A DNA stretch of 37,559 nt, taken from contig CAYMDG010000006.1 of NCBI GenBank assembly GCA_964388905.1, positions 1 to 37,559 on the forward strand. Direction: 5' to 3'. The translations under genes and the position numbers were made by a program. The notes beneath the pieces were generated by a model, which did not search any database, was not told the origin of the DNA, and saw only the letters and a program-made list of their open reading frames with translations. Every line of letters starts with the position of its first letter. Position 1 is the stretch's first letter. Below, one piece after another: positions 4,988 to 33,108 of the stretch. Source of the DNA: an uncultured Bacteriovoracaceae bacterium. GTDB taxonomy: Bacteria; Desulfobacterota; Desulfomonilia; UBA1062.

Positions 4988-5413
4988 ATGGCCATGAGTC
5001 TTGATATTCTCATTAAACAATTTAATTATCCCATAGTTCATCATGAGGGTAAGAAATACATGAATCGTGCTAGTTTAACGTTGTCTGGGAGTTCATTCCA
5101 TTGGCAAGTTGAAAGGGACCAATATCAAAACGTCCCAGGGCTCAGCGAAACAACATACTACTTCTCACATAAAGAGCTAAAACTACTTGTGGAAGCCTAT
5201 CAGACCTTGTCGGAAAAAGAATATGAGACGAGGGCACGATTAGAATATGAATTACAGGAAAAGATAAAGAATAATAGACAGCGAGCCACTTCTAAGCAAT
5301 TGGTTGAATTATTCAGGAATGCTCAAATCGAGTGGGAAACAGATCCAAGTATATATTTTGAGGATATAGTGTGGAGATTGATAAAACAAAAATATCCACC
5401 CAAGGGGAAGTAA
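4988..5413 (+). CDS. Hypothetical protein
   Basis: 141-aa ORF with strong RBS GGAGGT upstream. No recognisable motif. Confidence 0.7.
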   Translation: MAMSLDILIKQFNYPIVHHEGKKYMNRASLTLSGSSFHWQVERDQYQNVPGLSETTYYFSHKELKLLVEAYQTLSEKEYETRARLEYELQEKIKNNRQRATSKQLVELFRNAQIEWETDPSIYFEDIVWRLIKQKYPPKGK

Positions 5414-5778
5414 GGAGAAATATCCAAATATACTGACGTTCTCCTTAGAGGAGTTATTTGTATTTCAAAAAGTTGAGAATACCCTAAAGGTAGAGAGATT
5501 TGAATTCTCGACCCTAGTCAATTATATCAAAGAGTTAGGCCCTAAAACCACCTATTTTGTAGGTCAGTAGATGGGCAGTAAATTTATACATATGGATTTT
5601 TCAAAGCACACAATAATTGTCTAGAGCCAATACCAAAACTAGACATCTCAGAGTACCGATCATGGCAGAGTCTATTGAAAAACTCTAAGGATGGAAAGTG
5701 ACAAAAAAGCCACTGTGTAGAATGCCCTACGATGTGAGATCTTTGATCGGAGAATAGATAAGTTATCTAATAAATAAT

Positions 5779-6498: not shown

Positions 6499-6591
6499 AT
6501 CAAACCCATTTCATCAAGCTAATTGCTTTAAAGAATAGATTATATAATAAGTTATTAATTATAAAAACCAGATAAAATAATTGAGCATGAC

Positions 6592-7683: not shown

Positions 7684-7736
7684 TAGTTAATATCCATTTA
7701 GTTATGTTAATATCAGTATTGCTGTAGGGATGATAT

Positions 7737-9692
7737 TTACAATATTTTTTGCAACGTGTTTGCAATTTGTTTAGGGACTAATTTCAACCAAAAATCCTTA
7801 ACATTTTTCCTGTCCCAATACGGGAGGCCAGCACTCTTCACCCACAAATCCAAATCCTTTCCATCGAGAGTTACAGTTTTTCTGTCATTGTTTGCGGAGA
7901 TATTGCAAGCAATAATCGCAGTAGCCAATCCATCTTTGAGTCCCTGCTCCAAGTCATCACTATCAGATAGACATCTGCCTAGTATAAGAGATCTAGCCTC
8001 TTTGGGGTCTCTATGCCAGAGCGCGCTCAAAACGTCTCCTAACACCTGTCTTCGCCTACAACCTGCTGCCATAGCAAGTTGTGCTCCTTGAACGGCTTGA
8101 TCGTATACTTTTGAATGGTCAGGCTTTTCAGCCTTTGCATTTACTTTAGCACAGTCAAGGGCAACCTTGGCTGCAATGGATTCCCAACCAATATCCATCA
8201 GTCTAGGGATCAGGTTCTTGTTTGGTCGCTCAAGCCAGACCTTTTGTGCAAACTCTATCCTGTCGGATAAAACTCTGTCAGCAGATATCCTGACCATCCA
8301 CTCCTTTTCAATTTTAGGATTCAAAGGCTGGTTTAATTCAAATTTACCAATGAAAAGATCAAACCAAAGTCTAGGATCATCATTTGCGAGCTTTGGATTT
8401 TTAATGGATGCGTCACTTACAGCTTTCCAAAGCTGAGGGCGTATTTCGATGTCATCCTGACGGTATAGATATAGATGATGGCGAAGATGCTTTTCTAATT
8501 TGGCGGCAGTTGGCCAGAAATCAGGGTTGGATTTTACGTGAGATATCGTTTTATCAGCAATCTTTTTAAGGTCATCTTTTGGTGTACCACTGTGTTTTAG
8601 CCACTTGTGATGCAAAGGTGATTCATAATCACCTTGACTATCGAGAAACTCAGCAATTTCTGTCAATTTTTTCTCATTCAGTTTATCAGGTTTGGATAGT
8701 TTATGTAGGAGAAGTATTCGATCCAACAAATCTTCCTTTGCTTCATTAACAAAGGGCACTACATCAACACCATAACATCCACGCATCGCGACTGACCAAT
8801 AACGGTATGGCCCTGCACTATGGTTAAGGAAATTAATTTTATTATCTCCTCCATCATGATGCATCAGGGCAAGATGATGCTGACCTAGGTAAGGCTTCGT
8901 ACGCTTAACAAAAGCTGTAGCATTTCGAATAGGGATATCAGTCCACGAAACACCTAAAGTCAGTACAGATCTTTTGCTAAACAGGTCATTTAAAAAGGAC
9001 TGATAATGAATATCATCATTTTGAATTACATTGTATCCCCAGGAATCGAGTATGGGTTTGGTAAGGGTAGTAACCCGACCATGAAGGTAGATAAAATAGA
9101 TGAGCTTGGGATCTATCTCCGGTTGAGGAAATAGAAAGCTCGGAAGATCCTCCCGATTCAAAACGATTAGTTGATAACCTGGTCTTTCTTTATTCAAATA
9201 AATATTCAAGGCTTGCTCTATGTAAGGAGTGTAGTTTGTTGTAACAATCATATTGGACGAGGAAAGTAGTGATACAAGCTTCCATGTATAACTAGTTTCA
9301 GTAATTATTGGGTTAATTTTTTTAACCAATATCTTGCGGATCTTCTTATGAAATGAATTTTCCCCCAGCCTTATTTTAGGGTAAAAAGCCATTTCAGTAG
9401 GCCACCATTTAGCTAATTCATCATAGGTACTCTTCAGCCAAGGTCGTTTAAGACCACTTTTATATTTATTTGGAATCAGATCATAAAGTCGATTAAGACC
9501 ACTTTTATATATATTTGGAGTCAGATCATAAATAAGCTCTTGCCAATTTTTTATATCAGTATTAGGGCAAGAATCGCTTATAATAGCTTTATCAACTCCC
9601 GCTCCAAGATAAAAAGCGATTTCCCCACGAGATCTTACGTCTGCAATTGAACCTAAGGTTCGATTTGTTGACGGAGAGTAATTGATTATCAT
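7737..9692 (-). CDS. SIR2-like (SIR2_2) domain protein with long helical C-terminal region
   Basis: FYLGAGV..W.ELI, IVTTNY(T), IYLHG and LTLGVSWTD motifs of defence-associated sirtuin NADases. 651 aa. Confidence 0.85.
   Translation of the reverse strand: MIINYSPSTNRTLGSIADVRSRGEIAFYLGAGVDKAIISDSCPNTDIKNWQELIYDLTPNIYKSGLNRLYDLIPNKYKSGLKRPWLKSTYDELAKWWPTEMAFYPKIRLGENSFHKKIRKILVKKINPIITETSYTWKLVSLLSSSNMIVTTNYTPYIEQALNIYLNKERPGYQLIVLNREDLPSFLFPQPEIDPKLIYFIYLHGRVTTLTKPILDSWGYNVIQNDDIHYQSFLNDLFSKRSVLTLGVSWTDIPIRNATAFVKRTKPYLGQHHLALMHHDGGDNKINFLNHSAGPYRYWSVAMRGCYGVDVVPFVNEAKEDLLDRILLLHKLSKPDKLNEKKLTEIAEFLDSQGDYESPLHHKWLKHSGTPKDDLKKIADKTISHVKSNPDFWPTAAKLEKHLRHHLYLYRQDDIEIRPQLWKAVSDASIKNPKLANDDPRLWFDLFIGKFELNQPLNPKIEKEWMVRISADRVLSDRIEFAQKVWLERPNKNLIPRLMDIGWESIAAKVALDCAKVNAKAEKPDHSKVYDQAVQGAQLAMAAGCRRRQVLGDVLSALWHRDPKEARSLILGRCLSDSDDLEQGLKDGLATAIIACNISANNDRKTVTLDGKDLDLWVKSAGLPYWDRKNVKDFWLKLVPKQIANTLQKIL
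9443..9532. repeat. 45-bp tandem duplication inside the SIR2 gene
   Basis: 9443-9487 and 9488-9532 are 42/45 identical and encode YDLTPNIYKSGLNRL / YDLIPNKYKSGLKRP. Confidence 0.9.
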
Positions 9693-12734: not shown

Positions 12735-13358
12735 ATGGGACCACGAAATAGATCAATCCTTGCCAGCCTTCCATGGTGGGCCAGTGTAATTATAGCAATT
12801 GTCGCTTACCTCTTGCTCAAATATTGGATACCATCCATTGCATTTAATCATGATGACCCTCTAAGCAAGGCGTTGGCTGAGGCTGTAGCAACGATGATTG
12901 CTCCTATCGTTGGTGGGGCATTCCTTATTGTTGCAGCTTTATCGGCTTTTAGGACTTGGCGAAAAGGCTCTTTGCTTGAAGGGCAAAAAGGTATCGAGAC
13001 TATCCGTAAAATTAGTTGGCAGGAGTTTGAAGAGCTTGTTAGTGAGGCATATAGGAGAAAAGACTACACTGTGACTGAAACTGGTGGAGGTGGAGCAGAC
13101 GATGGGGTTGATCTGATCTTAAAAAAGAAGGGTGAGAAACTCCTTGTACAATGCAAACACTGGAGAATGGAAAAAGTTGGAGTAATGGTAGTACGAGAAC
13201 TTTATGGAGTTATGACTGCTGAAGGTGCAACTGGTGGGATTGTTATATCCTCTGGTTCATTCACCGTAGAGGCAACAGAATTTGCTAGAGGCAAACCGCT
13301 TGAATTGCTAAATGGTGATGCCCTGCTCAAGATCATAGAAGATGTACAAAAGACATAA
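12735..13358 (+). CDS. Mrr-family (type IV) restriction endonuclease with N-terminal TM helices, truncated before its zinc ribbon
   Basis: W.EFEELV.E.YR..DY.V..TG..G.D.GVDL......LVQCKHW..VGV..VREL.G...G.VI.SG.FT..A..FA motif set. Confidence 0.85.
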   Translation: MGPRNRSILASLPWWASVIIAIVAYLLLKYWIPSIAFNHDDPLSKALAEAVATMIAPIVGGAFLIVAALSAFRTWRKGSLLEGQKGIETIRKISWQEFEELVSEAYRRKDYTVTETGGGGADDGVDLILKKKGEKLLVQCKHWRMEKVGVMVVRELYGVMTAEGATGGIVISSGSFTVEATEFARGKPLELLNGDALLKIIEDVQKT

Positions 13359-14835: not shown

Positions 14836-15621
14836 TTAATGAACGTCCTCTGGTTCTGTGTGTTTTTGGCCGAGTGATACCAAGGAACCCCCATGGTTTT
14901 TTAAAACCACAGAACGAAGCTCTGAGATTTCACGCCTTAACATTAAGATCTCACTATCTTCTTTCTTCTGTGTAGGTGAAAGGAACCAGGAAGCAACAAA
15001 TCCGGACAACGTCCCAAATAGGCCAACACCTGCGATCATCAAAAATACACCTATCACACGACCTTCTATCGTCTTTGGGACCATGTCTCCATAACCTACC
15101 GTGGTCAATGTAACAAAGGACCACCAGATTGCATCAACGGGACCCTCAATGTTGGATCCAGAAGCTACTTCGAATTGGAGTATCGCTACGCTTGATACAG
15201 TAACCAAGAGGATAACGAGAAATGTCACTGAGAGAAATGCAAATTCTGTTCGTTTTTTAATTATGAAGTTGGTAAGAAGTCGTGAGGCCCGGATAGTACG
15301 TAACAACCGAAGTACCCGAAGAATTCTAGCTGTTCTTCCCAAACGAAACACATCATAGTATGGAATGCTTGAGATAAGATCAATCCATCCCCATGATATA
15401 AAATATTTCCACCGATTATTCGCACGCCAAAGACTAGCAAGGAAGTCAAAAAAGAAGATGAGACAAACCCCTGTGTCAGCCCATAAAAAAATATCTCTAC
15501 TAGCCTCATCTAATAGATTGAATGCACCAACAGCTATTAAGATAAGTGCAAAAAGGGAAAGAACAAGCATGAAGAGATCGTAAGGGGTAGCCGTTTGCTC
15601 AACATTCTGTTGGTCTCTCAT
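14836..15621 (-). CDS. Voltage-gated-type 6TM potassium channel
   Basis: TLTTVGYGD selectivity filter, Arg-rich S4 [19 protein letters not shown], and [12 protein letters not shown] 15621 follows GGAG, whereas the track starts at 15681. Confidence 0.92.
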
Positions 15622-15751
15622 CCTGATAATCTCCAAGGAAACATGGCTTCCCACTCCATAGCAATCTCCTAAAAGTAACACTGTTTTGAATTTTACAACG
15701 TCTTAAACTAAGTACGTTTTTTTATTGTGCATTTCATTAAGTAGCACAACA

Positions 15752-16441
15752 TTATGGATTACATATCTTACAAGGCCTGTATCCTGCTTTTATCGCTTCT
15801 TCTCTTGTCTTAAAGATAGCAGTACAGTTCTTGCAATTAAAACTTTTACAGTCAGGTTTATGGAACTTGAACGAATTTTGGTTACCATGGAATTCGTCAG
15901 CATTCACATGGTTGATTAATTTATCTGATTGTACTTTAGAAAATCTATTATTAGTACCATGCCTATAGTCCCAAGGTGCTATGGGATTCGGGTCGGACCA
16001 CAGGCCAATCTCTTCTGATCTTGCTTGTTTTTCTAACTCAAGCCATTTGTCGCATTTAACATCAGTACAATATTGGCCGTATACCCATGCTAAACCTGAA
16101 ACAATAAGTTCTTCATTGAGGCACTTTTCACCAACTTTAATGAAAGCAACACTACGCCCATATTTATCAATTACAGTTGGTTCAACATGCACCCGCTTGT
16201 TAAATGTGAGTTGCGATGTAAGTTGTTTAGCTTTCTTGCCAAAGGCCTGTCCGCTTTCAGGACAATCGATGCCGTATAATCGAATCTTTTCTCCTTTACC
16301 ATCATGCATTACAGTTATAGTATCACCATCAGATACACCAACAACATTGCCTTGCCATGCGTATGCCTGACTTAAGAAAGAGCTGGCGGCGTATGAAAGA
16401 ATCATTACCAGAATGATTCTAATAAATAGTAATCTGTGCAT
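15752..16441 (-). CDS. Secreted thermonuclease (SNase) with C-terminal Ada-type metal-binding domain
   Basis: Signal peptide ending AYA, then DGDTI, IRLYGIDCPE, DKYGR and GLWSD..P..PW, with tail FH...C.........F..REEA..AGYRPCKIC. Confidence 0.92.
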   Translation of the reverse strand: MHRLLFIRIILVMILSYAASSFLSQAYAWQGNVVGVSDGDTITVMHDGKGEKIRLYGIDCPESGQAFGKKAKQLTSQLTFNKRVHVEPTVIDKYGRSVAFIKVGEKCLNEELIVSGLAWVYGQYCTDVKCDKWLELEKQARSEEIGLWSDPNPIAPWDYRHGTNNRFSKVQSDKLINHVNADEFHGNQNSFKFHKPDCKSFNCKNCTAIFKTREEAIKAGYRPCKICNP

Positions 16442-16526: not shown

Positions 16527-17276
16527 TTAAAATCGCGGTATGAAGCCACTGTTCCTTATTGCTTTGTAAGGAGCTAGCTTGCCACTTTTGTCAATGTAGC
16601 GAACATGGCAATTGCATTCGGTGTACACTTCTTTCAATTTTCTGAAATTAATGACGAAATCATTGATTGATAATGAATTAACCTCATCAAATGTGTAACC
16701 AAGTTTGAAAAGAATTTCTTGTAACTCTTCGGTTTCTGCCTCGAAAGTTACTGTAGTATCTGTAACTATTATCGTTGCAATGTCTTTAGGTATTTTGTTG
16801 CCATTTTTATCCAATATATAGAAACAGGGCGGCTTTCCATACCCTCTACTCTTCCCTGTACAGTTAGCCCACTCATCTAACTTTTTTTCAAGATCCTTTA
16901 TTCCCCCCTCATTATTTACCAACGCCACCTTTTTTTCTAGTTCATTTATCCCCCCTTGTTTGTCTAAGAGTTCTACCTTTTTTATTATTTCTTTTACCCC
17001 ATCTTTATCGACCAAGTCTTTCCACTTTTTTTTAACTTCATCTGATTTAAAATCCTTTGCGGGTATTAGTTTGGTGAGCTCGTCTGTTAATTTCACAAAA
17101 TCAGAAACCCCATAGCTCTTTGTGATCTCCCCAAGTTGATCTTCTATAGATGTTATTTTCCCTTTCTCTGAACTTTGAACACTCACTTCTATAACGTACA
17201 GAAAGAGACCGACAAATATAATCTGAACGAGAAAATCAACAAGGGTAAGAAGGAAAACTGAACTCTTGTCTTTCAT
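16527..17276 (-). CDS. ZorB/MotB-like single-TM protein lacking an OmpA domain
   Basis: N-terminal TM LLTLVDFLVQIIFVGLFLY with an intramembrane Asp, then ~16-aa repeats and a GKPPC domain. Coupled to the upstream gene by TAATG. Confidence 0.55.
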   Translation of the reverse strand: MKDKSSVFLLTLVDFLVQIIFVGLFLYVIEVSVQSSEKGKITSIEDQLGEITKSYGVSDFVKLTDELTKLIPAKDFKSDEVKKKWKDLVDKDGVKEIIKKVELLDKQGGINELEKKVALVNNEGGIKDLEKKLDEWANCTGKSRGYGKPPCFYILDKNGNKIPKDIATIIVTDTTVTFEAETEELQEILFKLGYTFDEVNSLSINDFVINFRKLKEVYTECNCHVRYIDKSGKLAPYKAIRNSGFIPRF

Positions 17277-18940
17277 TACACTTCAGATATATTTTTATCA
17301 ATATTTTGTCGCGGTTGAAGAACAATATCATTTATCCCAGTAGTTATATCAACTGATTTTTTACTAAGACCTGTAAGGTTATCTAAAACTTGACGCAAAA
17401 TAGGCTCTGCTTCTAGGGATTGGTTAATAACGCTAGCAAGGAGCCTCTCAATATATTTTAGATCTTTGCTATTGGCAATGCTCATAAGTTTATCAGTTAT
17501 CTGATTCATAAGTGGTTCAGCAGCAGTAGATTGTTTGATCACACTAGATAGTACCTTTTCAATTTCATTAATTTCACTGTTATTTGCTAGCACTTCCAAA
17601 TTATCCTTTATCTGGATAATCAGTGGTTCAGTCGCAGTAGTTTGTTGGATCATATTGGAAAGAACCCTTTCCAATTCGTGTGCATCCTCATTACTTGCAA
17701 GCGTGGATAGGTTGTCTTTGATCTGAGTTAATAACGGTTCAGCAACAGAAGATAACTTAATAATGCTACCAAGAGCCTTTTCAGCTTCTTGCAGTTCTCC
17801 TCTTATACTGCCTAATTGATTCAACCTTTCCGTTGCAGCACCCATTGACATGGATAGTCTGACTGTCCATTCATCAACCCCACCCAATCCCTTTGTTGCT
17901 TTGTCTGTCGCAGTATGGAGATTGTTGAACTGCTCAGGAAGCAATTCTGTCTGGTCTTTCAGAGAGACTATTCTATCCTTTAGTGCATCAACTTCTTTCA
18001 CAGCTGCATTCAGTGATGCAATGAACCCATTGAGCATTTCGGGTTGAGAACCTAGGATTTCCAAGGCAACCTTTACTTTATCCACCTCGTTATTTATATC
18101 CTTAATTTTTGAAAGTGTATCTGAGACTTCCTTTAGGGAGCTTGCTAGAATTTCTGAGTTTTGCCCAGTATCCTTAATGTGAATGTTTGCTTTTTCTGCA
18201 TTATTGGCAAGTCCATCCAAAGGGGAAGTTAGTTTTTTAAGTTGTATTGTGATTTTACTTGATCCTTCACCCAATTCCTTAATATCTTCCCCTAGACTCT
18301 CAACCGAAGAGCGGAAATCATCTAGACATTTCAGATCACTAAAAGATTCACTCAAAAATCCCTTGAATTCATCAACAGTAATTTTGAGCGCATCTGATGT
18401 AGTGGTTACACATTTATCGAGAGATTCTACGATCTTGTCGTTCATATCATTTATAGATAGCCTAGATTCAGCTGTTGCTTGTTTAACAATTTCCGAGGCT
18501 TGATTCACCGATCTTGAAAACTCTTCTATGGTATCGTTTGCCTCAAGAGTGTCTAATTTACCTGCCCATGCCAACAATATCATCCTGCCAAGCAGCGCTA
18601 TTCCCGTTGCAAGTAGACCTGCTCCAAATTGGAGAGCAACGGTCTTGACATTAAGATTAGCCTTATCCGCGGTTGTCTTGAAGATACACACGGCTAGGAT
18701 TTCTATTGTTATGAGAAATCCGAAATAATATACACTGTCAATCGCATCCTGTGAAATAACATTTTTTTTTGCAAGCTTATCCCAAAGGAAATAGCAATAC
18801 AGTAGTAAAGGCATACATCCTACAGGAATTATTAAGAATGTATCTAGCTTAAGAAATGCTAAAAATATTATCGAGCCAAGTGAAGTAATCAGTAAGTTAA
18901 GAAAAACTGTTTTTATTTGATATTTTGATAAGTCTTCCAT
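17276..18940 (-). CDS. ZorA/MotA/ExbB-like membrane protein with long coiled-coil tail
   Basis: TM segments DSVYYFGFLIT and FGAGLLATGIALLGR resemble MotA/ExbB TM motifs. Followed by a ~430-aa heptad-rich tail with 37-aa repeats. Confidence 0.6.
   Translation of the reverse strand: MEDLSKYQIKTVFLNLLITSLGSIIFLAFLKLDTFLIIPVGCMPLLLYCYFLWDKLAKKNVISQDAIDSVYYFGFLITIEILAVCIFKTTADKANLNVKTVALQFGAGLLATGIALLGRMILLAWAGKLDTLEANDTIEEFSRSVNQASEIVKQATAESRLSINDMNDKIVESLDKCVTTTSDALKITVDEFKGFLSESFSDLKCLDDFRSSVESLGEDIKELGEGSSKITIQLKKLTSPLDGLANNAEKANIHIKDTGQNSEILASSLKEVSDTLSKIKDINNEVDKVKVALEILGSQPEMLNGFIASLNAAVKEVDALKDRIVSLKDQTELLPEQFNNLHTATDKATKGLGGVDEWTVRLSMSMGAATERLNQLGSIRGELQEAEKALGSIIKLSSVAEPLLTQIKDNLSTLASNEDAHELERVLSNMIQQTTATEPLIIQIKDNLEVLANNSEINEIEKVLSSVIKQSTAAEPLMNQITDKLMSIANSKDLKYIERLLASVINQSLEAEPILRQVLDNLTGLSKKSVDITTGINDIVLQPRQNIDKNISEV
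17365..17800 (-). repeat. 111-bp (37-aa) tandem repeats in the ZorA-like tail
   Basis: EP anchors at + strand 17736, 17625, 17514 and 17403, exactly 111 bp apart. Boundaries are approximate. Confidence 0.85.
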
Positions 18941-18961
18941 GTTTTTATCCCTTCGTAAGAA

Positions 18962-19879
18962 TCAACCAGGCAAATTATAAAGACACAAACAATAACAATT
19001 CTGGTCATGTTCTACTTTATTGCATGGTGAGTCGAGGAACATGCACTCGCATGGTGTTCCTTGTTCAGCTTCTGTACACGAGCACTTGTTGTCGCCGAAG
19101 AACCATTGCCAGAAACGGTTTCTACATTTTACAGTAGTAGATGTCATTTTTGATTCAAACCGTGGGATGATATGGATATAAATCTTGACGTTCTTAAAGC
19201 TGGGCCTCTGAACACCTCCAGCTCTTTTCTCAAGAAATTGTTTTATTGCTTCTTCTGCGGAATGCGAATGATAGAGAGATAGATAATCAGAATTCTCCAT
19301 CATATCAGAGAATATAATCAGGTTGGATGTGCTAACATTTTTATTGCCCTTGAAAATTCCTCTTTCTTCTTTACTATCAGGATCGCCTACATCCATATAC
19401 CCGGATAGTGATAAATCTATCAGGGCTTCAGCCATGTGTGTCTCTTTTGATTCTCCTAATGGAGTTTGTAGGATGTCTCTCAAGGGTTGTTCAAAGGTTT
19501 TTTTAAATTCTTCTTTTACTGCTTCTGTGTCTTCATTTAAATCGTTTCCTTTTGACCTGGGTAAACAATGATAAAAAACAGGTGCAAGATTGTGCCTAGA
19601 AAGGTCATTCAGTGTGAATACTGATACGAGTTCTCCAATCTCCACACGTCTATGGATAAAGCTGAGAATACGTCTAATGATCTCATCTTGTGTCTGTTTG
19701 GAAACAGGTTGGCTGTGGTCGATTACTATTACTGTTTTACGTGTTATATCATCACCACAGCCTGTTGTTTTATCAATTTCCTTAAGCGATCTTACCCAGA
19801 GACTTCCTCCAACAACGAATATGATCAATGCAAGCGCAGGAATAATTACATACCAATGGTACTTCTTTAGCCCTGGCAT
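18962..19879 (-). CDS. Membrane-anchored VWA-like protein with Cys-rich C-terminus
   Basis: N-terminal TM, then VIVIDHS (MIDAS-like DxS), T...EAL, LIIFSDMMENS and FW.WFF. Nine Cys in the last ~55 aa. Confidence 0.6.
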   Translation of the reverse strand: MPGLKKYHWYVIIPALALIIFVVGGSLWVRSLKEIDKTTGCGDDITRKTVIVIDHSQPVSKQTQDEIIRRILSFIHRRVEIGELVSVFTLNDLSRHNLAPVFYHCLPRSKGNDLNEDTEAVKEEFKKTFEQPLRDILQTPLGESKETHMAEALIDLSLSGYMDVGDPDSKEERGIFKGNKNVSTSNLIIFSDMMENSDYLSLYHSHSAEEAIKQFLEKRAGGVQRPSFKNVKIYIHIIPRFESKMTSTTVKCRNRFWQWFFGDNKCSCTEAEQGTPCECMFLDSPCNKVEHDQNCYCLCLYNLPG

Positions 19880-21486
19880 TATGCCGCTCCTCCGTTTAAC
19901 CTCGTGCTGTTAATTGATGATGAGCCTCTTATCTGCGCAATAAGATCATTTGCTTTATTTTCAACATCATTTTTAAGATACTCATCAAAGCGCTGGCCAA
20001 GAAATGCTTGATGTTCAAGCAGAATAGTTTTCCTTAATGCAGCTAGTCTTGTTGTGTTGTTACTTATCTTATCATTAAAACTCTGTTCCAATGTTTTCAT
20101 TTCTGCTTCAAGTTTTTCCAATTCGAGCCTTCCGATGCTTGTGTCTGTATTAATTTGAGGTATGATCTTGAAATATTCTGGAGCGGGATTGGGAGACCGG
20201 GCTGCTTCATTAGCGACCCTATAAGTAACTATAATAGCTTGCATGTCTTTTATAATAGTATCTATTATCGCATCTTTTTTACTCATTGACATCTTTATAG
20301 CACGCCTAAGATTGTCAATATTGTCCTCGATTCTCACAACAAGGGCTTGTAATCTAATAAGTTCGCTCTCTTTCTCAACAAGCTTGTTAATAATATCTGT
20401 GCGCACGGTCTGGACTTTATTTTTGAATGCCTGTTCAGCCTTTCTATAGTCTTCGTAAGGTCTTCTATACCCCCAATAGGCATCCGTAAGAGAATAACCC
20501 TCATAAAAAGCTAGAATGCATATAATGAAACTAATACAGAAAAGCAGGAAGCTCATTATGTCTCCGAATGGGTAATTGAAAGTAAAAATTGTGAGAGCAG
20601 CAGATTTAGCTTTCGTGGCTGCATCCGTAAGTTGTTGAAAATCTCTAGGGTTAGTTACATACTGGTATTCGTGTCGATAACAAGACAGCATTGTATTGAA
20701 AAAAAGAGCTACAACTATCCAAAACAAAAAACTTAACCAACCTATTACTTTCTTAATAATGTTTACATGACTTACAAAGCGGAACATTAATCCCAAGATA
20801 CCAGCTGCTGCAATGTTAATAAATGATACAAGACCTGCTATGAAAGCCCCGCCTAATAACCCGCGTTCATTCTTAAAAAATACAGCATTGATAAATGCCT
20901 CCATAAGAATGCATGATATGATAATGCCAATTTTAAAATACTGTTCTTCAGCAGTAGGATATTTCGCAGGGCGAGTGAGATTGTGCTCTCTTTTGAACCA
21001 GTTGAGGTGCTGGATCGCTTCAATTTCATTTTTCCGTAGATATGCTAGACCATCCTTGGTTTCATCTTGGAAGTCCTCTTTATCTTTCCTTTTTTTTAAG
21101 GGATCTGATGATCCGTCACGATTAAGGGTTTTTATTGATTCAATCTCGCTAGTTATTTTGTCTAGTCCGTCCGATACAGCAGCCTCTACCTCTCTATTAG
21201 TTTTCCGTAGATCCGAATTAATGTTCTCTATCTCGACGCTATAGCCATCAATGGCAATTTTAAAATTACTAATCTCATCTTCTATGAATTTCTCGGCTTG
21301 AGAAATAATTACATGTTCATATTGGTCAGGTTTTGTAGCGGTTTGAGGAGGCCTTGAATTAGAACCTTCATCTTCACCTTTTCTTTTTGTTTCGTTTCTC
21401 CTAGTTGAAGTGGCTAATTGACCATTGTATGTCGGCTCGTAAGGCTTCACAGAGCTGATAGATTTAATTGGTTCATCTTCAGGCAT
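19879..21486 (-). CDS. Multi-pass membrane protein flanked by coiled coils
   Basis: 535 aa with four hydrophobic segments and heptad-rich N- and C-terminal regions. RBS AGGAGG, and TAATG coupling to the next gene. Confidence 0.8.
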   Translation of the reverse strand: MPEDEPIKSISSVKPYEPTYNGQLATSTRRNETKRKGEDEGSNSRPPQTATKPDQYEHVIISQAEKFIEDEISNFKIAIDGYSVEIENINSDLRKTNREVEAAVSDGLDKITSEIESIKTLNRDGSSDPLKKRKDKEDFQDETKDGLAYLRKNEIEAIQHLNWFKREHNLTRPAKYPTAEEQYFKIGIIISCILMEAFINAVFFKNERGLLGGAFIAGLVSFINIAAAGILGLMFRFVSHVNIIKKVIGWLSFLFWIVVALFFNTMLSCYRHEYQYVTNPRDFQQLTDAATKAKSAALTIFTFNYPFGDIMSFLLFCISFIICILAFYEGYSLTDAYWGYRRPYEDYRKAEQAFKNKVQTVRTDIINKLVEKESELIRLQALVVRIEDNIDNLRRAIKMSMSKKDAIIDTIIKDMQAIIVTYRVANEAARSPNPAPEYFKIIPQINTDTSIGRLELEKLEAEMKTLEQSFNDKISNNTTRLAALRKTILLEHQAFLGQRFDEYLKNDVENKANDLIAQIRGSSSINSTRLNGGAA

Positions 21487-21580: not shown

Positions 21581-21610
21581 AAGATATCAAATATCGTTTA
21601 ATAATGTCAA
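21581..21610 (-). promoter_or_regulatory. Putative sigma70 promoter for the four-gene membrane operon
   Basis: Minus strand TTGACA-N18-TATCTT with a TGn extension, about 95 bp upstream of the 21486 start. Confidence 0.4.
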
Positions 21611-21990: not shown

Positions 21991-24900
21991 GTGGAAAGTG
22001 ATTTTAATATTAATTGTATCTATGTTGTTTTAACGCCAAAAATTAATCTCGCATTTTATCAGAACGCAGTGCCGGTTTTACGTGAACTTGTGATCATTAA
22101 TGAAGGTAAAGAAACATTGCAGGAGGTTGAGTTGAGCCTTCAATCTGAGCCAGCCTTTATAAAGTCAAAGATCTGGCGGGCTGACGCTATTAAGGCAGGC
22201 CAGCATTTTCGCATCACAGATTTGGATGTGTCACTTGATGGAGCGCTTCTAGGACGTCTGACCGAAGCTGAATCTGCCCGGGTGACGTTTGTCCTGAATG
22301 TTGGTGAAAAAGAATTTGGTAGATTGGATAAAATGATAGAACTTCTCCCCCGCAATCAGTGGGGAGGCATTGGTCATATGCCAGAAATCATAGCGGCATT
22401 TGTACAGCCGAATGAGCCTGCAATTGACCATTTACTCAAGAAGACAGCGGAAATACTTCGTAATCATGGTAAAAATAGTGCGCTTACAGGCTATGAAGGA
22501 GGCCCGAAACGGGTCTGGGAATTGTCTTCAGCAATTTGGGCTGCCTTTGGCTCCATTGGTCTTGATTATTCTCTACCTCCTGCCAGTTTTGAACGTGCAG
22601 GTCAGAAAATTCGTAGTTCTGGCCAGATCATAGACGCCAGAATCGCCACTTGTATGGACACAACACTGTTCTTCTGTGCAGTATTTGAGCAGTGTGGTCT
22701 TAATCCATTAATTATTTTCACACAGAACCATGTCTTTGCTGGTGTTTGGCTGAAAGCTGAAGAATTTACAACAGTTGTAGTCGATGACATTACGGCCCTT
22801 CGTAAACGAGAAAAACTCAATGAACTTTTATTGTTCGAGACAACCCTTGTCACACAACGCCCATGCCCAAGCTTCAAACGTGCTGTTGAATTGGGCGCTC
22901 AGCATATCTCAGAGGATGAAGAAGGACAATTTGAGCTTGCCATAGACATTCGACGAGCTCGATTACAGCGAATAAAACCTTTGGCGAGTGAGCATGTGGT
23001 CGAGCCCTCTGGCCAAAAGATCTCACCTAAGGAAGATCTGGAAGCTGTTTTTGAAGAGGCTCCGGATTTTCCCGATTATGAGATAGTACAACAAGCTCAG
23101 ACGACCCCCTCTGAACCACAGGATCGCTTGGATCGCTGGCAAAGAAAGTTACTTGATCTCTCTCTTCGCAATAGTCTTTTAAATTTTCGGACAACAAAAA
23201 GGGCAATCAAGTTATTTGCTCCTGATCCAGGTCGAATTGAAGATATGCTCTCAGATGGACACGTGCTCAAGCTGCTTCCACACCCTGACCTTATGAATGG
23301 AACGGATCCTCGCAGCCAAAAAATTTACGAGGCCCGTACAAGCGAAGACGTTCGTCGTGCCCATGCCGTGGATGCACTTAACAGAAAAGAAATTATGGTG
23401 AGTCTTCCAAAAGATGAGCTTGACAGTCGTTTGGTCGAACTATATCGCTTCGCTCGCGCTAACTTACAAGAAGGAGGAGCAAACACTCTTTTCCTAGCTC
23501 TAGGTTTTCTTTCATGGACTAGAGATGAAAAGGACAATAAACGTTTTAGAGCACCACTTGTTTTGATCCCCGTAACCTTGCAACGCAGTAGTGTGCGTTC
23601 TGGATTCACTCTGAGGATACACGATGATGAGCCACGTTTCAATCCAACATTAATTGAGATGTTGCGGCAGGATTTCCACCTCGAACTACAGGTAAGACAG
23701 GGTGAACTTCCAAGAGATGACCATGGATTGGATATTACGGGAATCTGGAATGCTGTTGCCCAAGCCATTAAAGATATCCGGGGTTGGGAAGTAGTTGAAG
23801 AGGTGGTGCTTTCAACTTACTCATTTGCAAAATACTTGATGTGGAAGGATCTGATTGACCGTACTGATCAACTAAAACAGAACCCCGTGGTGAAGCACCT
23901 TATAGATACGCCACGTGAGACTTATCAATCATCCGGATGCACCTTTCTTGATCCTAGAGCTTTGGACCAAACATATGGGCCAGAACAGATTTTTTGCCCA
24001 CTTTCAGCAGACTCATCCCAATTGTCAGCTGTGATTGCTGCGGCAAATGGCAAAGATTTCGTTTTGATTGGCCCACCAGGAACAGGCAAAAGCCAGACCA
24101 TTGCAAACATAATAGCTCACTGCTTGGCGGAGAAAAAAAGTATTTTGTTCGTGTCGGAGAAGATTGCTGCTCTGAACGTAGTTTACCGACGTCTATGTGA
24201 AATAAAATTAGGTGATTTCTGCCTTCAGCTTCACTCCAACAAAGCGCGCAAAGTTGATGTACTTCAACAGCTTGATTGTGCATGGGAAGCCAAAGGTGAA
24301 ATTGATGATGAGGAGTGGAAAAGAGAGACTCAGCGCCTTAAAACAATTCGGGACCAGTTAAATAAATTTGTCAGACAACTCCACTGCAAACGACGAAATG
24401 GACTGACGGCTTATACCGCTATTGGATTGATAACAGCAGGAAGAGATCTACCAAAATTGGGGCTTTCATGGCCTTCGGCGGATGTTCATAGTGCAGAGGA
24501 TTTAGTTGCGCTTAGAGATCTTGCAGATAAACTGGACATAAACGCTAAGGAAGTAGGAGCAATAGCTAATAGTCCTCTAGCTTATATTCCCCTCGGTGAG
24601 TGGTCTCCAAGCTGGCAACAGGCACTGATTGATTCTGCTTGTGATCTTATTTCTGCAGCTGATCATCTTGATAAATCAGCGCAAATACTTTTCGAAGCCA
24701 TTGGCATACCTAAGTTCTCTCTAGACGAGCGCAGACGTGAGGTACTCTCAATATTGAGTCGCACACTACCTAATGCTGCAGGACGTGATTGGCGTTTTGT
24801 CTTACGTCATGATGTGCGAACAATTAGTGAGGAACTGCGGAATGGATTGAGTCTATTGGAACAGTGTCGAGATATTAAAAGTCATCTACATACTCCCTGG

Positions 24901-27900
24901 TCTGTCGATTTGATCCAAAAAATTAAGCATGGACTGGACATAATTGAACGCCACCGGGAGGTTTCATCCCAATTATCTACGACATACAACAGCAATGTTT
25001 CCAATATTGACGTTGGGCAATTAAAAATAGATTGGGAAAAAGCAAACAAGTCCTGGTGGCCATTAAACTGGTTAAGGCGCCGTCAGGTTCGTTCTGCTTT
25101 GGTTGAAGTGGTTGAAGGAGATCATGATATTGAACTCCCATCCGATATTGATCGTCTAGTCATCCTACGCAAGCTTGACTCTGAAATTAACATCCTTGCA
25201 GACTCTACGACAATAACATCAAATCTTTGGGCTGGACTGGATACAAGAGTGGACGATATGTCGGCTGCACTTACATTTCAAACTACTATGCATTTAGTGT
25301 TGGCTGATCAAAGTTGGAACGAAGGTGGGATTGCCGCGGTCGCCGCTGGACGATGTGGGGCTTACATGGCTGCTGATTTGGAGAGATTGAGATCTTTGCG
25401 ATTTTTGCAAAATGAAATTGCTAAGCTCGATCACTTGCATAGCAAAACCAACGGATTGTGGAATGGACTCAACACTAGGACGGAGGAATTAGAAAGGGCG
25501 TTGGATTTTCAGGAAAAGCTAACCATTTCTATTAGTAAAATTGCCACATCATCAGAGTCTTTCAGTAAAATTAAAACTACACTACAGCATTTGTTGGGCG
25601 AGGGTAATGCTTTGCTTGACCCAACAGGACCAATAGCCAATGCAGGAAGTAGATATAGTGAGGCTGTTGAGCGTTTCCATTCTGCTTATAATAACTTCTC
25701 TGTGAAATCTGGAATGATAGCATCTGAAATCAATATCAAGGAAGACGAAACACCGGAAAGCATAAAAAATATTTGCAGCGGCATTGTTCAATTACAGCCT
25801 AAACTCCGCGCGTGGTGTGCGTGGCGAAAGGTAAGGGGCGAAGCTATTACAAAAGGCCTGATGCCACTTGTTAATGCTATAGAAAAAGGTAAAGTTGAAC
25901 ATGGTGTAATAAGAAAATCATTTGAGATAGACTATGCTCGTTGGTGGTTGAACGTAACTGTAGATAATGATGAAGTCCTTTTAAATTTTGTCTCTGCAGA
26001 GCATGATAAATGCATCGCCGATTTTAGGGCACTCGATGATAGACTCACCGAACTGACACGTGACTATGTCAGAGCTGGTTTGTGTGCTGCTCTTCCTGGC
26101 AAACAAGAATCACGCAGGAATTCGGAATGGGGCATACTCCGACATGAAATGCAAAAGAAAAAACAGCACATGCCGTTACGCGAGCTCATAAATTGCATCC
26201 CGAGTGCAATTACTAAGTTAGCTCCATGTTTATTAATGAGCCCATTGTCTATAGCTCAGTACCTATCAACCGAAACTCCTCTTTTCGATATTGTGGTGTT
26301 CGATGAAGCTTCGCAGATTCCTGTCTGGGATGCTATTGGGGCGATTGCCCGCGGGAAACAGGTAGTGATGGTAGGTGACCCCAAGCAGCTTCCCCCAACA
26401 AGTTTCTTTGATAGAGCTGAATCAGAAGCTGATTACGAAGATGTGGAAGGAGACCTAGAAAGTATCTTAGATGAATGTCTTGGAGCGAATCTTCCGATGT
26501 TAAATCTTTCATGGCATTATCGTAGCAGACATGAAAGTCTGATCACATTTTCTAATAGCCGTTATTACGGTGGTGGCCTCCTGACATTCCCGTCGCCAAA
26601 TACTGAAGATAAGGCAGTTAGTCTTCATATAGTGGAAGATGGTGTTTATGAGAAGGGCGGTGCACGAATTAATAAGCCTGAAGCTCGAGCTTTAGTCACT
26701 CATATAGTCTCGCGCCTTAAAGACCAGGAGTTCGTAGATCGAGGTCTAAGCATAGGTATTGTAACCTTTAACGCAGAACAGCAAAGATTGATTGAAGATC
26801 TGCTTGATTTTGAGAGACGAAAATTGCCTTCTATAGAGTCTTTCTTCGCTGATGATAGAATCGAGCCTATCTTTGTGAAAAACCTTGAGAGCGTACAGGG
26901 CGACGAGCGAGACATTATGTACTTCTCACTTACCTACGGGCCTGACATAACCAAGGCAATATCCATGAATTTTGGCCCTATGAATCAAGATGGGGGTGAG
27001 CGTCGCTTAAATGTAGCTATTACTCGCGCTCGACATGAATTACTTGTTTTTTCAAGTCTGCGGCCAGAGCAAATTGATTTGTCTCGTACTTCAGCTGTTG
27101 GAGTACGGGATCTGAAGCATTTCATGGAATTTGCCGATCGTGGCCCAAAGGCTATTGCAGAGGCTGTTTATGGTACTATCGGCGACTACGACAGCCAGTT
27201 TGAAAGGATGGTGGCCGAAGCCCTGGCAAACAAGGGGTGGTATGTGCATCCACAAGTAGGTGTGTCATCTTTTCGTATTGATATCGGTGTCGTAGATCCT
27301 GATATGCCTGGACAGTATTTGGCTGGTATAGAATGCGATGGAGCTACGTATCATCGCTCTGCCACTGCTCGGGACCGAGATAAATTGCGAGAGCATGTTC
27401 TTCACGGGCTTGGCTGGCATATTGTACGTATTTGGTCCACAGATTGGTGGATTGATGCTTCTGGCGCGTTGGAAAAGGTGCATTCCAGTCTTGAAAGATT
27501 ACTTGAGGAAAGCCGCGCAAAGCGAGCTGAAGAAGAATGCAAACGTCAAGAAGTGTTGACAACCACCAAGATGATAAACAGTCAAGATTTTGAGGGTAAC
27601 CGTCCTGCAGATGCAGATCTTTTTCTTCCTGCTGATGTAATAACCCCGAGAGGTAGCTATCAGAAGCAAATTGTATTACATACTGAGTCAGAAAGTAATA
27701 TAGCTGAAAGTAGCCTTATATCTGAGCACGCTATCACAAACCACTCATCTGTAACTCTGCCGGGGTCATATGTAGAGGCTTATCACCAGCAAGAACTATT
27801 TAGGGAACACTATTCTGCTATTTTTGCCCCTTACCAAAGCTATATTGGGCACTCATTCAGTGATCCGCGTATTACCAGTACTGGTGGAATTGCCGAAGGA

Positions 27901-28371
27901 CTCTGCCGCATAATAGAAGTTGAAAATCCAATATTGACCAAGCGCGCTTATGATATCTATTTGCGTGGATGCGGAATCAAGCGCATGGGGCTTGAGCTAA
28001 AGCATACAATGGATAAGGCTATACAGCATGCGGTTCGCCAAAATCGATTGGTTGTCGAAGATGAGTTGAATAATAAAGGATTTATCAATGCGATAGTACG
28101 AATCACAGACACACCTCCATTAGTCCTGCGTAAGAGGGGGCCTCGATCATTTGAGGAAATACCGCCAAGCGAGGTGATGGTTGCATCTCATCTCGCCATG
28201 AAAAATACTACTATTCAAAAAGGAAGCGATGAGCACCTTCACACAATACTGGAGATGTTTGATCTAAAGCGCCTCACCTATCAAACAAAAACTAGGCTCT
28301 TAGAAATAATTGAAAAAGAATTCGATTATGTAGTTGCTTGGATCAGGGAACGAGGTACTGATGTTTTATAA
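21991..28371 (+). CDS. Hhe-like defence protein: DUF4011 - SF1 (UPF1/DNA2-like) helicase - Vsr/DUF559-like nuclease - C-terminal DUF3320-like region
   Basis: RWQRKLLDLSLRNSLLNF (DUF4011), GPPGTGKSQT, FDEASQ, GDPKQLPP, WHYRS, QGDERD, RRLNVAITRAR and FRIDIGV..GIECDGATYH..RDRD..R...L..LGW...RIWS. Architecture matches HheA of Gao et al. 2020. Confidence 0.85.
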   Translation: MESDFNINCIYVVLTPKINLAFYQNAVPVLRELVIINEGKETLQEVELSLQSEPAFIKSKIWRADAIKAGQHFRITDLDVSLDGALLGRLTEAESARVTFVLNVGEKEFGRLDKMIELLPRNQWGGIGHMPEIIAAFVQPNEPAIDHLLKKTAEILRNHGKNSALTGYEGGPKRVWELSSAIWAAFGSIGLDYSLPPASFERAGQKIRSSGQIIDARIATCMDTTLFFCAVFEQCGLNPLIIFTQNHVFAGVWLKAEEFTTVVVDDITALRKREKLNELLLFETTLVTQRPCPSFKRAVELGAQHISEDEEGQFELAIDIRRARLQRIKPLASEHVVEPSGQKISPKEDLEAVFEEAPDFPDYEIVQQAQTTPSEPQDRLDRWQRKLLDLSLRNSLLNFRTTKRAIKLFAPDPGRIEDMLSDGHVLKLLPHPDLMNGTDPRSQKIYEARTSEDVRRAHAVDALNRKEIMVSLPKDELDSRLVELYRFARANLQEGGANTLFLALGFLSWTRDEKDNKRFRAPLVLIPVTLQRSSVRSGFTLRIHDDEPRFNPTLIEMLRQDFHLELQVRQGELPRDDHGLDITGIWNAVAQAIKDIRGWEVVEEVVLSTYSFAKYLMWKDLIDRTDQLKQNPVVKHLIDTPRETYQSSGCTFLDPRALDQTYGPEQIFCPLSADSSQLSAVIAAANGKDFVLIGPPGTGKSQTIANIIAHCLAEKKSILFVSEKIAALNVVYRRLCEIKLGDFCLQLHSNKARKVDVLQQLDCAWEAKGEIDDEEWKRETQRLKTIRDQLNKFVRQLHCKRRNGLTAYTAIGLITAGRDLPKLGLSWPSADVHSAEDLVALRDLADKLDINAKEVGAIANSPLAYIPLGEWSPSWQQALIDSACDLISAADHLDKSAQILFEAIGIPKFSLDERRREVLSILSRTLPNAAGRDWRFVLRHDVRTISEELRNGLSLLEQCRDIKSHLHTPWSVDLIQKIKHGLDIIERHREVSSQLSTTYNSNVSNIDVGQLKIDWEKANKSWWPLNWLRRRQVRSALVEVVEGDHDIELPSDIDRLVILRKLDSEINILADSTTITSNLWAGLDTRVDDMSAALTFQTTMHLVLADQSWNEGGIAAVAAGRCGAYMAADLERLRSLRFLQNEIAKLDHLHSKTNGLWNGLNTRTEELERALDFQEKLTISISKIATSSESFSKIKTTLQHLLGEGNALLDPTGPIANAGSRYSEAVERFHSAYNNFSVKSGMIASEINIKEDETPESIKNICSGIVQLQPKLRAWCAWRKVRGEAITKGLMPLVNAIEKGKVEHGVIRKSFEIDYARWWLNVTVDNDEVLLNFVSAEHDKCIADFRALDDRLTELTRDYVRAGLCAALPGKQESRRNSEWGILRHEMQKKKQHMPLRELINCIPSAITKLAPCLLMSPLSIAQYLSTETPLFDIVVFDEASQIPVWDAIGAIARGKQVVMVGDPKQLPPTSFFDRAESEADYEDVEGDLESILDECLGANLPMLNLSWHYRSRHESLITFSNSRYYGGGLLTFPSPNTEDKAVSLHIVEDGVYEKGGARINKPEARALVTHIVSRLKDQEFVDRGLSIGIVTFNAEQQRLIEDLLDFERRKLPSIESFFADDRIEPIFVKNLESVQGDERDIMYFSLTYGPDITKAISMNFGPMNQDGGERRLNVAITRARHELLVFSSLRPEQIDLSRTSAVGVRDLKHFMEFADRGPKAIAEAVYGTIGDYDSQFERMVAEALANKGWYVHPQVGVSSFRIDIGVVDPDMPGQYLAGIECDGATYHRSATARDRDKLREHVLHGLGWHIVRIWSTDWWIDASGALEKVHSSLERLLEESRAKRAEEECKRQEVLTTTKMINSQDFEGNRPADADLFLPADVITPRGSYQKQIVLHTESESNIAESSLISEHAITNHSSVTLPGSYVEAYHQQELFREHYSAIFAPYQSYIGHSFSDPRITSTGGIAEGLCRIIEVENPILTKRAYDIYLRGCGIKRMGLELKHTMDKAIQHAVRQNRLVVEDELNNKGFINAIVRITDTPPLVLRKRGPRSFEEIPPSEVMVASHLAMKNTTIQKGSDEHLHTILEMFDLKRLTYQTKTRLLEIIEKEFDYVVAWIRERGTDVL

Positions 28372-33105: not shown

Positions 33106-33108
33106 GGC

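Follow-up and report, generated by a model that had tools for sequence, protein, structure and literature searches.

A recurrent gene cassette encoding a divergent MotA/TolQ/ExbB-superfamily protein and a VWA-fold protein in a genomic island of an uncultured Bacteriovoracaceae bacterium

Genes and features of the cassette

The window analysed here, 37,559 nt long, is an entire contig (CAYMDG010000006.1, positions 1 to 37,559 of the forward strand) of a metagenome-assembled genome (NCBI GenBank assembly GCA_964388905.1, 89% complete) from an uncultured Bacteriovoracaceae bacterium (GTDB lineage Bacteria; Desulfobacterota; Desulfomonilia; UBA1062). Its subject of interest is a cassette of four consecutive minus-strand genes, named A, B, C and D in the order in which they are read, whose products are candidate parts of an ion-driven envelope machine (Table 1). 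The genes are tightly arranged. Stop and start codons overlap as TAATG at the A/B and C/D junctions, the spacer between B and C is 21 nt long and includes a purine-rich, ribosome-binding-like stretch, and gene A is preceded by a ribosome-binding site of the GGAGG type. On its upstream side the cassette is separated by a 504-bp intergenic region from a divergent neighbour, an Hhe/PDC-S37 gene (E = 0 and 2.9e-171).

A hydropathy scan assigns all four products to the membrane. Protein A has a polar helical region of about 185 residues at its N-terminus, four transmembrane (TM) segments (residues 186-328) and a further polar helical region of about 207 residues at its C-terminus. Protein B has a single N-terminal TM segment and 11 Cys residues outside the membrane. 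Protein C has four TM segments within residues 12-118, followed by a tail of 436 residues, and protein D has one TM helix (residues 7-25) that contains Asp14, with four Cys outside the membrane. From the charge distribution of the loops, A is predicted to be an inner-membrane protein with cytoplasmic tails, the tail of C would likewise be cytoplasmic and helical, and the Cys-rich domains of B and D would be periplasmic. A preliminary description of this stretch, made from the sequence alone, had reported four genes with two TAATG couplings and one 21-bp gap, lying divergent from hhe; coordinates and junctions match, the 504-bp spacer and the Hhe/PDC-S37 assignment agree with the divergent arrangement, and the topologies it gave for A, B, C and D are those of the hydropathy scan.

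Table 1. Features of the cassette in the window, and positions of the gene set that takes the place of gene A at other loci (L numbers denote loci)
Feature	Part of protein	Position	Strand	Remarks
Gene A		19879-21486	minus	535 amino acids (aa); open reading frame (ORF) list
Gene B		18962-19879	minus	305 aa; ORF list
Gene C		17276-18940	minus	554 aa; ORF list
Gene D		16527-17276	minus	249 aa; ORF list
Compact four-TM domain of C	residues 1-125	18566-18940	minus	conserved part of the family
Thr78 codon of C	TM3, YYFGFLxT	18707-18709	minus	aligns with the Thr of ExbB/TolQ 'GLxGTV'; 171/171
Thr112 codon of C	TM4, FGxGLxAT	18605-18607	minus	aligns with the Thr of the last ExbB/TolQ TM helix; 171/171
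Asp14 codon of D	TM helix	17235-17237	minus	intramembrane acidic residue; 46/46 homologues
C-terminal alpha/beta domain of D with conserved Cys pair	residues 150-249	16530-16829	minus	AlphaFold predicted local distance difference test (pLDDT) >92
SNase-type nuclease gene		15752-16441	minus	229 aa; signal peptide; C-terminal Ada-type Zn-binding domain; Pfam SNase 4.3e-23, Ada_Zn_binding 1e-5
Promoter-like site, candidate		21581-21610	minus	TTGACA, 18-nt spacer, TATCTT with TG; about 95 nt upstream of the A start; consensus match only
Tubulin/GYF replacement of A, L004		10965-16691		Pfam, ORF scan
Tubulin/GYF replacement of A, L014 (Massilia niabensis)		772-6811		Pfam, ORF scan
Tubulin/GYF replacement of A, L018		10858-16274		Pfam, ORF scan
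Tubulin/GYF replacement of A, L096		778-6516		Pfam, ORF scan
Tubulin/GYF replacement of A, L099		3-2666		Pfam, ORF scan

Relationship of protein C to the MotA/TolQ/ExbB superfamily

A profile of the TM domain of C recovers 1460 representatives (clusters at 50% identity) at E<=1e-3 among 1.84 billion proteins. Their names in NCBI and UniRef are 'hypothetical' or, for some, driven by composition, such as 'methyl-accepting chemotaxis protein', and none of 100 window-type relatives scanned at E<=1e-4 reached the gathering score of any Pfam family. Protein C of the window, too, is named by no family of Pfam or NCBIfam. The family is nevertheless well defined by its residues: P44, D68, Y71, Y72, G74, T78, G108, T112 and R119 are invariant in all 171 TM domains compared.

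The connection to known motor proteins runs through a sister subfamily, which consists of weakly C-like genes found in the order around a Cupriavidus locus, within operons of the type A-B-C-D'. All 42 sister proteins match a hidden Markov model (HMM) built only from window-type sequences, over all four helices and with 21-55 bits. The sister protein P0262 (L106) matches the window-type TM profile across the four helices with 43.5 bits (E 1.1e-14), and it reaches 21.3 bits over residues 78-130 against Pfam MotA_ExbB, just below the cut-off of 22.9. When 40 sister proteins were compared with PF01618, 35 matched at E<=0.01 and 17 attained the gathering score of 22.9 bits; the match always covers residues ~65-135 of the protein and positions ~45-113 of the profile. 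One sister protein already carries the NCBI name MotA/TolQ/ExbB proton channel family protein. Profile-profile comparison with hhalign gives the same picture. The window-type and sister subfamilies are linked at 98.1% (reversed-alignment control, 0.2%), and the sister TM domain is linked to a set of 35 ExbB/TolQ/MotA sequences at 77.1% (E 2e-5; reversed control, 0.2%). As a yardstick, the known pair ExbB and ZorA scores 62.8% in the same set-up. Between the sister TM domain and ZorA the value is 1.6%.

When the alignments are chained, Thr78 and Thr112 of C fall on two conserved threonines of ExbB. Judged by this transitive homology, C is a very divergent member of the MotA/TolQ/ExbB superfamily, closer to ExbB/TolQ than to ZorA. 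The MotA/ExbB-like TM domain with a long helical tail that had been proposed for it is thus supported by way of the sister subfamily, with both pore threonines invariant.

The tail of C was treated separately. An hhalign match of full-length C to ZorA at 96.9% was rejected: reversed ZorA scored 95.4-95.6%, and slices restricted to the TM domain at most 1.4%. The PADLOC models that match C are of the coiled-coil type only (DruC, JetC, LmuB and ZorA tails), with ZorA matches in 5 of 14 homologues. Since the reversed ZorA alignment scores alike, the resemblance of the tail to ZorA is an artefact of composition. The tail also contains four consecutive 37-residue repeats, each opening with (A/T)EP(L/I) (residues ~398-545; window 17306-17749, minus strand). 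No tandem repeats were found in the DNA of the locus, and those of C are seen at the protein level only.

Proteins B and D

Protein B has no match to Pfam VWA and none to any PADLOC or NCBIfam family; its assignment comes from structure. The AlphaFold model (pLDDT 78; predicted template-modelling score, pTM, 0.75) gave 201 Foldseek matches in the PDB at E<=1e-3, the best being integrin I domains, vWF A1 and PTMP1 (E 7e-6, probability 1.0). The modelled fold makes B an inner-membrane-anchored, predicted periplasmic VWA-domain protein, as the earlier wording of an anchored, VWA-like protein had it. An alignment of 16 homologues shows conserved C41, C105 and C252, a C-terminal LPG motif and invariant D54, D155 and S191, with D192 nearly so; the TM helix itself is not conserved. 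Set against the metal-ion-dependent adhesion site (MIDAS; DxSxS...T...D), D54 and S191 are invariant and D192 is near-invariant. Of the two serines of DxSxS, most sequences have the first but the second is missing (the window reads D-H-S-Q-P), so that the MIDAS motif appears incomplete.

In the TM helix of D, T11, L12, D14, Q18 and F21 are present in all 46 homologues with sequence at this place, and T11, D14 and Q18 form a polar stripe on the helix. Two D' proteins of the sister subfamily have Glu aligned with Asp14 and keep the Cys motifs. Outside the membrane, all 46 homologues have C151, which together with C221 makes up a shared Cys pair in the predicted periplasmic part. A helical linker (~56-145), modelled with low confidence, leads to the compact C-terminal domain. 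The preliminary description of D as a single-TM protein with an intramembrane Asp and no OmpA motif holds: the Asp is universal among the homologues, and D matches neither OmpA nor any other Pfam family, PF02472 included, and no PADLOC or NCBIfam family.

Relatives of D were sought by several routes. Searches of PDB sequences gave no match, and hhalign gave 0.2% against 27 ExbD/TolR sequences and 0.2-4% against profiles of ExbD, TolR, MotB and ZorB (ZorB, 0.3%). The sensitivity of such comparison is low for D, since the true pair ExbD and ZorB scored only 11%. With the whole model as query, Foldseek returned nothing at E<=1e-3, and the wide search aligned only the N-terminal helix, to coiled coils. 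For the C-terminal domain the best structural match is TolR, weak and below the reliability bars of the tools. For a Cupriavidus homologue of D in the ESM Atlas, the first named structural neighbour is an ExbD/TolR cluster (template-modelling scores 0.27/0.37, below the reliability bar). These weak matches to structure models point the same way and suit the place of the domain in the protein, and D is likely, though not shown, to be an ExbD/TolR-type partner. A complex prediction with four copies of C(1-150) and two of D(1-60), copy numbers that differ from 5:2, scored 0.10 and 0.06 against a mark of 0.32.

Conservation of the unit and its exchangeable parts

A pattern scan of one genome per species gave 17 loci and a metagenome scan 36 more, which with the window makes 54 (L070 is a duplicate of L009, and L084 a near-duplicate of L083). 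The genome loci belong mostly to Burkholderiales, with one from Methylococcaceae and one from a gammaproteobacterial metagenome-assembled genome. All ORFs of the 54 loci were scored with HMMs built from our own alignments of the cassette proteins. The gene order of the window recurs in the 53 other loci, far more often than chance would allow, and the order B-C-D is kept wherever the contig extends. B lies upstream of C in 51 of 54 loci, the remaining three all being at contig starts, and D lies downstream of C in 47 (the others comprise six at contig ends and one fragment).

Gene A is less constant. In 38 of 54 loci it immediately precedes B. As for the 16 that lack it, eight are cut by contig ends, five have a tubulin/GYF set, one has a DUF4407 protein in A's position (L005) and two have nothing there. 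The tubulin-type loci replace A by a Tubulin_2 + GYF_2 protein of 1060-1245 aa, a TPR-type protein of 415-498 aa and a protein of ~233 aa, for which a UniRef cluster member is named 'Glycine zipper 2TM domain-containing'. The proteins of this set have no match in PADLOC. In the two loci with nothing in place of A, and in several tubulin-type loci, B gains an N-terminal zinc-ribbon extension. Protein A of the window belongs to no Pfam, PADLOC or NCBIfam family, Pfam scans of 13 proteins in the A position found none except in the DUF4407 protein itself, and hhalign gives A at most 1.6% against C, ExbB, ZorA and the DUF4407 protein of L005. Because A can be replaced by the tubulin/GYF, TPR and glycine-zipper set or by a DUF4407 protein, B-C-D makes up the invariant core, and A counts among several partners that can be exchanged.

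Beyond D, a gene for an SNase-type nuclease with a signal peptide starts 85 nt downstream on the same strand and is probably the fifth gene of the window cassette. SNase genes lie beside the cassette in 16 of 54 loci, or in 14 of the 28 with at least 1500 bp beyond D, and every copy opens with a hydrophobic N-terminal leader resembling a signal peptide. At L073, where no SNase was detected, a gene for a secreted-type nuclease, Endonuclease_NS, follows D at a distance of ~730 bp. In Noviherbaspirillum, the last gene of a diverged second system is again an SNase. Given the recurrence of SNase and these two cases, an exported nuclease is a facultative fifth component. The four-gene unit of the preliminary description is therefore borne out as a conserved group across the 54 loci, with the amendment that A is replaced in some of them and the core is B-C-D; its notion of an all-membrane machine has to be dropped, the exported SNase being a frequent fifth gene, in the window too.

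Some loci show the cassette duplicated or decaying. Noviherbaspirillum aridicola (L104, G402:C4:74000-86000; and L004) has two systems about 11 kb apart, a diverged A-B-C-D'-SNase set and a B-C-D set of the tubulin/GYF type, with an REase-ARP gene and a resolvase between or beside them. In the leaf-nodule symbionts Candidatus Burkholderia verschuerenii and Candidatus Paraburkholderia calva the cassette is fragmented: C is split at L011 and A and B are in pieces at L015. These broken cassettes fit decay in reduced genomes.

Distribution and genomic neighbourhood

The C TM-domain profile is found in one of 401 genomes of the window's phylum, namely the window's own, and is absent from two genomes of the same genus and four of the same family. 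Of 401 genomes sampled from the order around the Cupriavidus locus, 3 carry it. At other loci the neighbours include integrases, type I restriction-modification genes, a type IV HNH enzyme, PIN and YhaV toxins, REase-ARP, NERD+UvrD (PADLOC C3a187), HEPN-Hsp70 with UvrD, a Cap4 nuclease, a TerY-like VWA+PP2C pair, a Schlafen-type helicase with MazG, radical SAM, DUF4236 and H-NS. Neighbours and distribution together suggest, circumstantially, that the cassette is a rare and patchy accessory unit that moves horizontally and is related to genetic conflict.

The setting in the window is of the same kind. Its left two thirds form an island of low G+C content (33-40%, against ~55% at 30-33 kb) that opens with an integrase and carries a DUF559 nuclease, a radical-SAM/SIR2 pair, an FRG/PDC-S15 gene, a resolvase, Mrr and a type IV HNH enzyme. 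It also holds an ion-channel gene, the SNase nuclease, the cassette A-D, Hhe/PDC-S37, DUF4236 and a PLD/SNF2 pair. The ion channel is a voltage-gated-type K+ channel gene (Pfam Ion_trans, Ion_trans_2; 14836-15681, minus strand) directly 3' of SNase and in the same orientation; in the other 56 loci, tblastn detected no counterpart of this gene. The radical-SAM protein has weak matches to prokaryotic viperins (E 1e-9) and adjoins a 651-aa SIR2-domain protein (6592-9692, minus strand); this pair may be a separate two-gene defence candidate. A DUF4236 protein with weak PDC-S48 matches lies a few kb from the cassette (28512-29687), and DUF4236 is also found at L076 (14318-15505, Pfam), the two proteins having no direct similarity by tblastn. 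At the high-G+C end of the contig, three plus-strand genes (29684-35928) encode a 452-aa protein, a PLD-domain protein (ZacB-like, 4.9e-16) and an SNF2 helicase (PDC-M27C 2.8e-38; ZacC 9e-24), which looks like a system of the Azaca/PDC-M27 type.

Two combinations of neighbours recur. Two unrelated loci (L009, 915-4484; L069, 518-4720) have, immediately before the cassette, genes for a UvrD-type helicase and for an Hsp70-like protein (800-1015 aa), which at L069 carries a HEPN_Swt1 domain. Hhe-like genes (AAA_11/AAA_12 + MTES_1575) occur in the window (21991-28371) and at L010 (1804-2913), L091 (262-5175) and L105 (415-5022). Thus 4 of 57 loci have such a sequence no more than 8 kb away from the cassette, and at L105 the Hhe-like gene directly follows C, at the place of D; this proximity may reflect co-location in islands or a functional link. 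The genome of L061 has a ZorA-like fragment at the end of another contig (G000:C266:23-580; PADLOC ZorA1, E 1.7e-17), and a true Zorya may coexist there with the cassette.

Interpretation

The explanation that accounts best for these features is that the cassette encodes a new ion-driven envelope machine of the ExbBD/TolQR type, a motor combined with a defence function, and we hold this combination to be somewhat more probable than its negation. Its two parts differ in strength. That the cassette is a motor at all is likely. A role in defence is moderately probable, and rests on the circumstantial context of the islands, the genomic setting suggesting phages or other mobile DNA as the target.

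The machine might work as follows. C and D would form an ExbBD-like, ion-conducting complex in the inner membrane, most likely with 5:2 stoichiometry, and the periplasmic domains of D and B would keep the complex closed or report the state of the envelope. An invader that disturbs the envelope would cause ions to flow at the site made up of Asp14, Thr78 and Thr112, driving the ring of C and its cytoplasmic tail. The output would then pass to the exchangeable partner, which is A in the window and elsewhere the set of tubulin-like GTPase, TPR and glycine-zipper proteins, and the exported nuclease, where present, would degrade DNA in the periplasm. A simpler variant is that opening of the channel drains the membrane potential and aborts the infection. 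The analysis itself shows the coupled genes, the conservation of the unit, the folds and topologies, the place of C in the superfamily by transitive homology, the invariant residues, the signal peptides of the nucleases and the sparse, island-borne distribution; how the parts assemble and in what ratio, how ions pass, what sets the machine off, which way signals run, what A does and the part played in defence are what we infer.

Several observations weigh against the reading as a motor with a defence role. Window C has no match to PF01618 at E<=1, its profile finds nothing among PDB sequences but nanocage and NorM noise, and hhalign gives 2.3% against the MotA/ExbB of its own genome, 7.9% against the 35 ExbB/TolQ/MotA sequences and, for the TM domain, 0.8% against ZorA. 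As direct similarity is undetectable, membership of the superfamily rests on one intermediate subfamily. C also lacks the large cytoplasmic domain that lies between TM helices in MotA, ExbB and TolQ, and the motif F-T-L-I-D in the helix of D also resembles how type IV pilins begin, although the Gly found just ahead of the cleavage site in pilins is missing from it. On the side of defence, no experiment or publication ties the cassette genes to such a role, for which the island context is circumstantial. SNase is absent from half of the loci with enough flank, and searches of 50,697 phage records, 72,556 plasmid records and a collection of viral contigs did not turn up the C TM domain.

An alternative accepts the motor and dispenses with immunity: the cassette would be a genuine ExbBD/TolQR-type accessory machine of the envelope that merely travels on mobile islands, exerting force on a periplasmic or outer-membrane partner bound by the VWA protein, for example, or processing DNA outside the cell or in the periplasm, with nutrition, uptake or the remodelling of biofilms as the purpose. 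Such a machine would account for the export of the nuclease rather than its retention in the cytoplasm, which is unusual among defence effectors, for those loci that lie amid housekeeping or regulatory genes (LysR, GGDEF-EAL, tRNA synthetases) and for the decaying copies in two endosymbiont loci (L011, L015), and force transduction has been proposed for inner-membrane-tethered vWA proteins encoded beside tolQR-like genes (PMC12204202). The TM helix of B, however, lacks the conserved His or Asp of these published transducers. The very sparse and patchy distribution, with the cassette absent from relatives of the same genus, also argues against a plain envelope function, as does the flanking of most long loci by integrase, restriction, toxin or known defence genes; and an exchangeable partner (A, the tubulin/GYF/TPR/glycine-zipper set, DUF4407) is typical of conflict systems. 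We regard a motor with no part in defence as unlikely.

The motor itself is given up if the ExbB-like helices are an evolutionary remnant in a static membrane complex or in a triggered pore, an abortive-infection effector that would collapse the membrane potential or scaffold the nuclease. Unplugged MotAB channels leak protons and stop growth, C has only the compact four-helix TM domain and no canonical MotA/ExbB cytoplasmic domain, and both the 'Glycine zipper 2TM domain-containing' partner and the four-TM protein A are plausible membrane-disrupting effectors. A remnant, however, would not be expected to keep the Asp/Thr/Thr triad together with D68, Y71, Y72, G74, G108 and R119 of C; their invariance across 171 sequences points to a conserved ion pathway of catalytic type. 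In part this pore overlaps with the motor reading, as known 5:2 motors also gate an ion pathway. We consider a static complex or pore quite improbable. Least credible, and in our judgement very improbable, is that the four genes serve the adjacent Hhe-type helicase-nuclease as an accessory membrane module, with the tail of C recruiting Hhe as ZorA recruits ZorC and ZorD. It draws on the Hhe-like sequences within 8 kb at the window (divergent, behind the 504-bp spacer), L010, L091 and L105. The other 53 of 57 loci have no Hhe-like sequence nearby, Hhe is described in PADLOC as a single-gene system, and co-location in defence islands is expected anyway.

A bolder form of the motor-and-defence reading is a periplasmic proton-motor immune system, in which a VWA-gated, ExbBD-like motor would use ion flow to intercept DNA or the injection machinery before it reaches the cytoplasm and hand the DNA to the exported nuclease, the long cytoplasmic tail signalling to interchangeable partners, either a four-TM coiled-coil protein or a set with a tubulin-like GTPase. 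It is speculative and, as we see it, improbable. If true, no earlier defence system would be known to act on invading nucleic acid outside the cytoplasm, and 5:2 motors would have been recruited into immunity a second time, independently of Zorya.

Ion-driven 5:2 motors power flagella, gliding, Ton and Tol transport, and phage defence by Zorya. If the reading of the cassette as a motor with a defence role is right, it adds to them a large unannotated branch, whose 1460 cluster representatives are now called 'hypothetical' or misnamed, and a new list of parts: a VWA protein, a replaceable coiled-coil or tubulin-like partner and an exported nuclease. It also singles out residues that can be tested (D14 of D; T78 and T112 of C). 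The variants of the cassette would be a natural experiment on the coupling of motors to different outputs, and the cassette could fill a missing annotation in surveys of defence islands.

Comparison with known systems

No description of the gene set was found in the literature, including searches with six NCBI accessions of homologues and excluding supplementary tables. In PADLOC-DB 2.0.0, proteins A, B and D of the window, with 11, 14 and 14 homologues respectively, have no match at E<=1e-3, and PADLOC 2.0 assigns no cassette gene to any system; the initial impression that no known system has such a composition is thereby upheld.

The nearest known relatives are the ExbB-ExbD and TolQ-TolR pairs (PF01618 + PF02472), described as 'generic ion transporters' (PMC12505986). 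The last two TM helices of C align, via the sister subfamily, with the core of ExbB/TolQ and keep both threonines. Gene D lies directly downstream of C with overlapping stop and start codons, and its product has the expected plan of one TM helix with an invariant acid and a small periplasmic alpha/beta domain, whose best structural match, although weak, is TolR. The differences are also considerable. Unlike those pairs, C and D of the window match neither PF01618 nor PF02472. C has four closely packed TM helices with no cytoplasmic domain between them and a tail of 436 residues, while D is extended by an inserted helical stretch of ~100 residues and also has a conserved pair of Cys. The cassette has no TonB or TolA gene; instead it has a VWA protein, a four-TM coiled-coil protein and, often, an exported nuclease.

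Inner-membrane-tethered vWA proteins encoded beside tolQR-like genes have been proposed to be force transducers, possibly related to motility; as that report presents them, the motor genes are recognisable tolQ/tolR homologues and the VWA helix carries an SHLS/His motif or a pore aspartate (PMC12204202). The cassette shares with them a TM-anchored, predicted periplasmic VWA protein beside a motor of the MotA/ExbB type and, in one of its variants, a TPR gene. In contrast, the helix of B is not conserved and the aspartate is on a separate, non-VWA protein, D. The published account of these transducers describes nothing that corresponds to protein A, to the tail of C or to the nuclease.

Zorya offers the closest parallel in overall design. 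The long tail of ZorA recruits the soluble Zorya effectors, and like Zorya the cassette has a MotA-superfamily subunit with a very long cytoplasmic helical tail, a single-TM partner bearing an Asp, variable additional genes and a location in defence islands. The 5:2 assembly proposed for C and D is that reported for ZorA and ZorB (PMC11890865). The components themselves differ from those of Zorya. The TM domain has no detectable homology to that of ZorA (hhalign 0.8-1.6%), D lacks the OmpA-like domain of ZorB, none of zorC, zorD, zorE, zorF and zorG lies by the cassette, and the nuclease is exported. PADLOC finds no ZorA or ZorB match among the window proteins, and the only window genes that share domains with ZorD models are Mrr (12735-13358) and SNF2 (33109-35928), both at least 3 kb away. 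Of the 'Zorya-like ion-motor pair' that had been proposed, a motor-superfamily subunit with an Asp-bearing partner therefore stands, while its kinship shifts from ZorAB to ExbB/TolQ-ExbD/TolR (77% against 1.6% for the TM domain). The cassette resembles Zorya in design and not by close kinship. It belongs to no named system, and would represent a new branch of ion-driven machines of the 5:2 type with a new set of partners.

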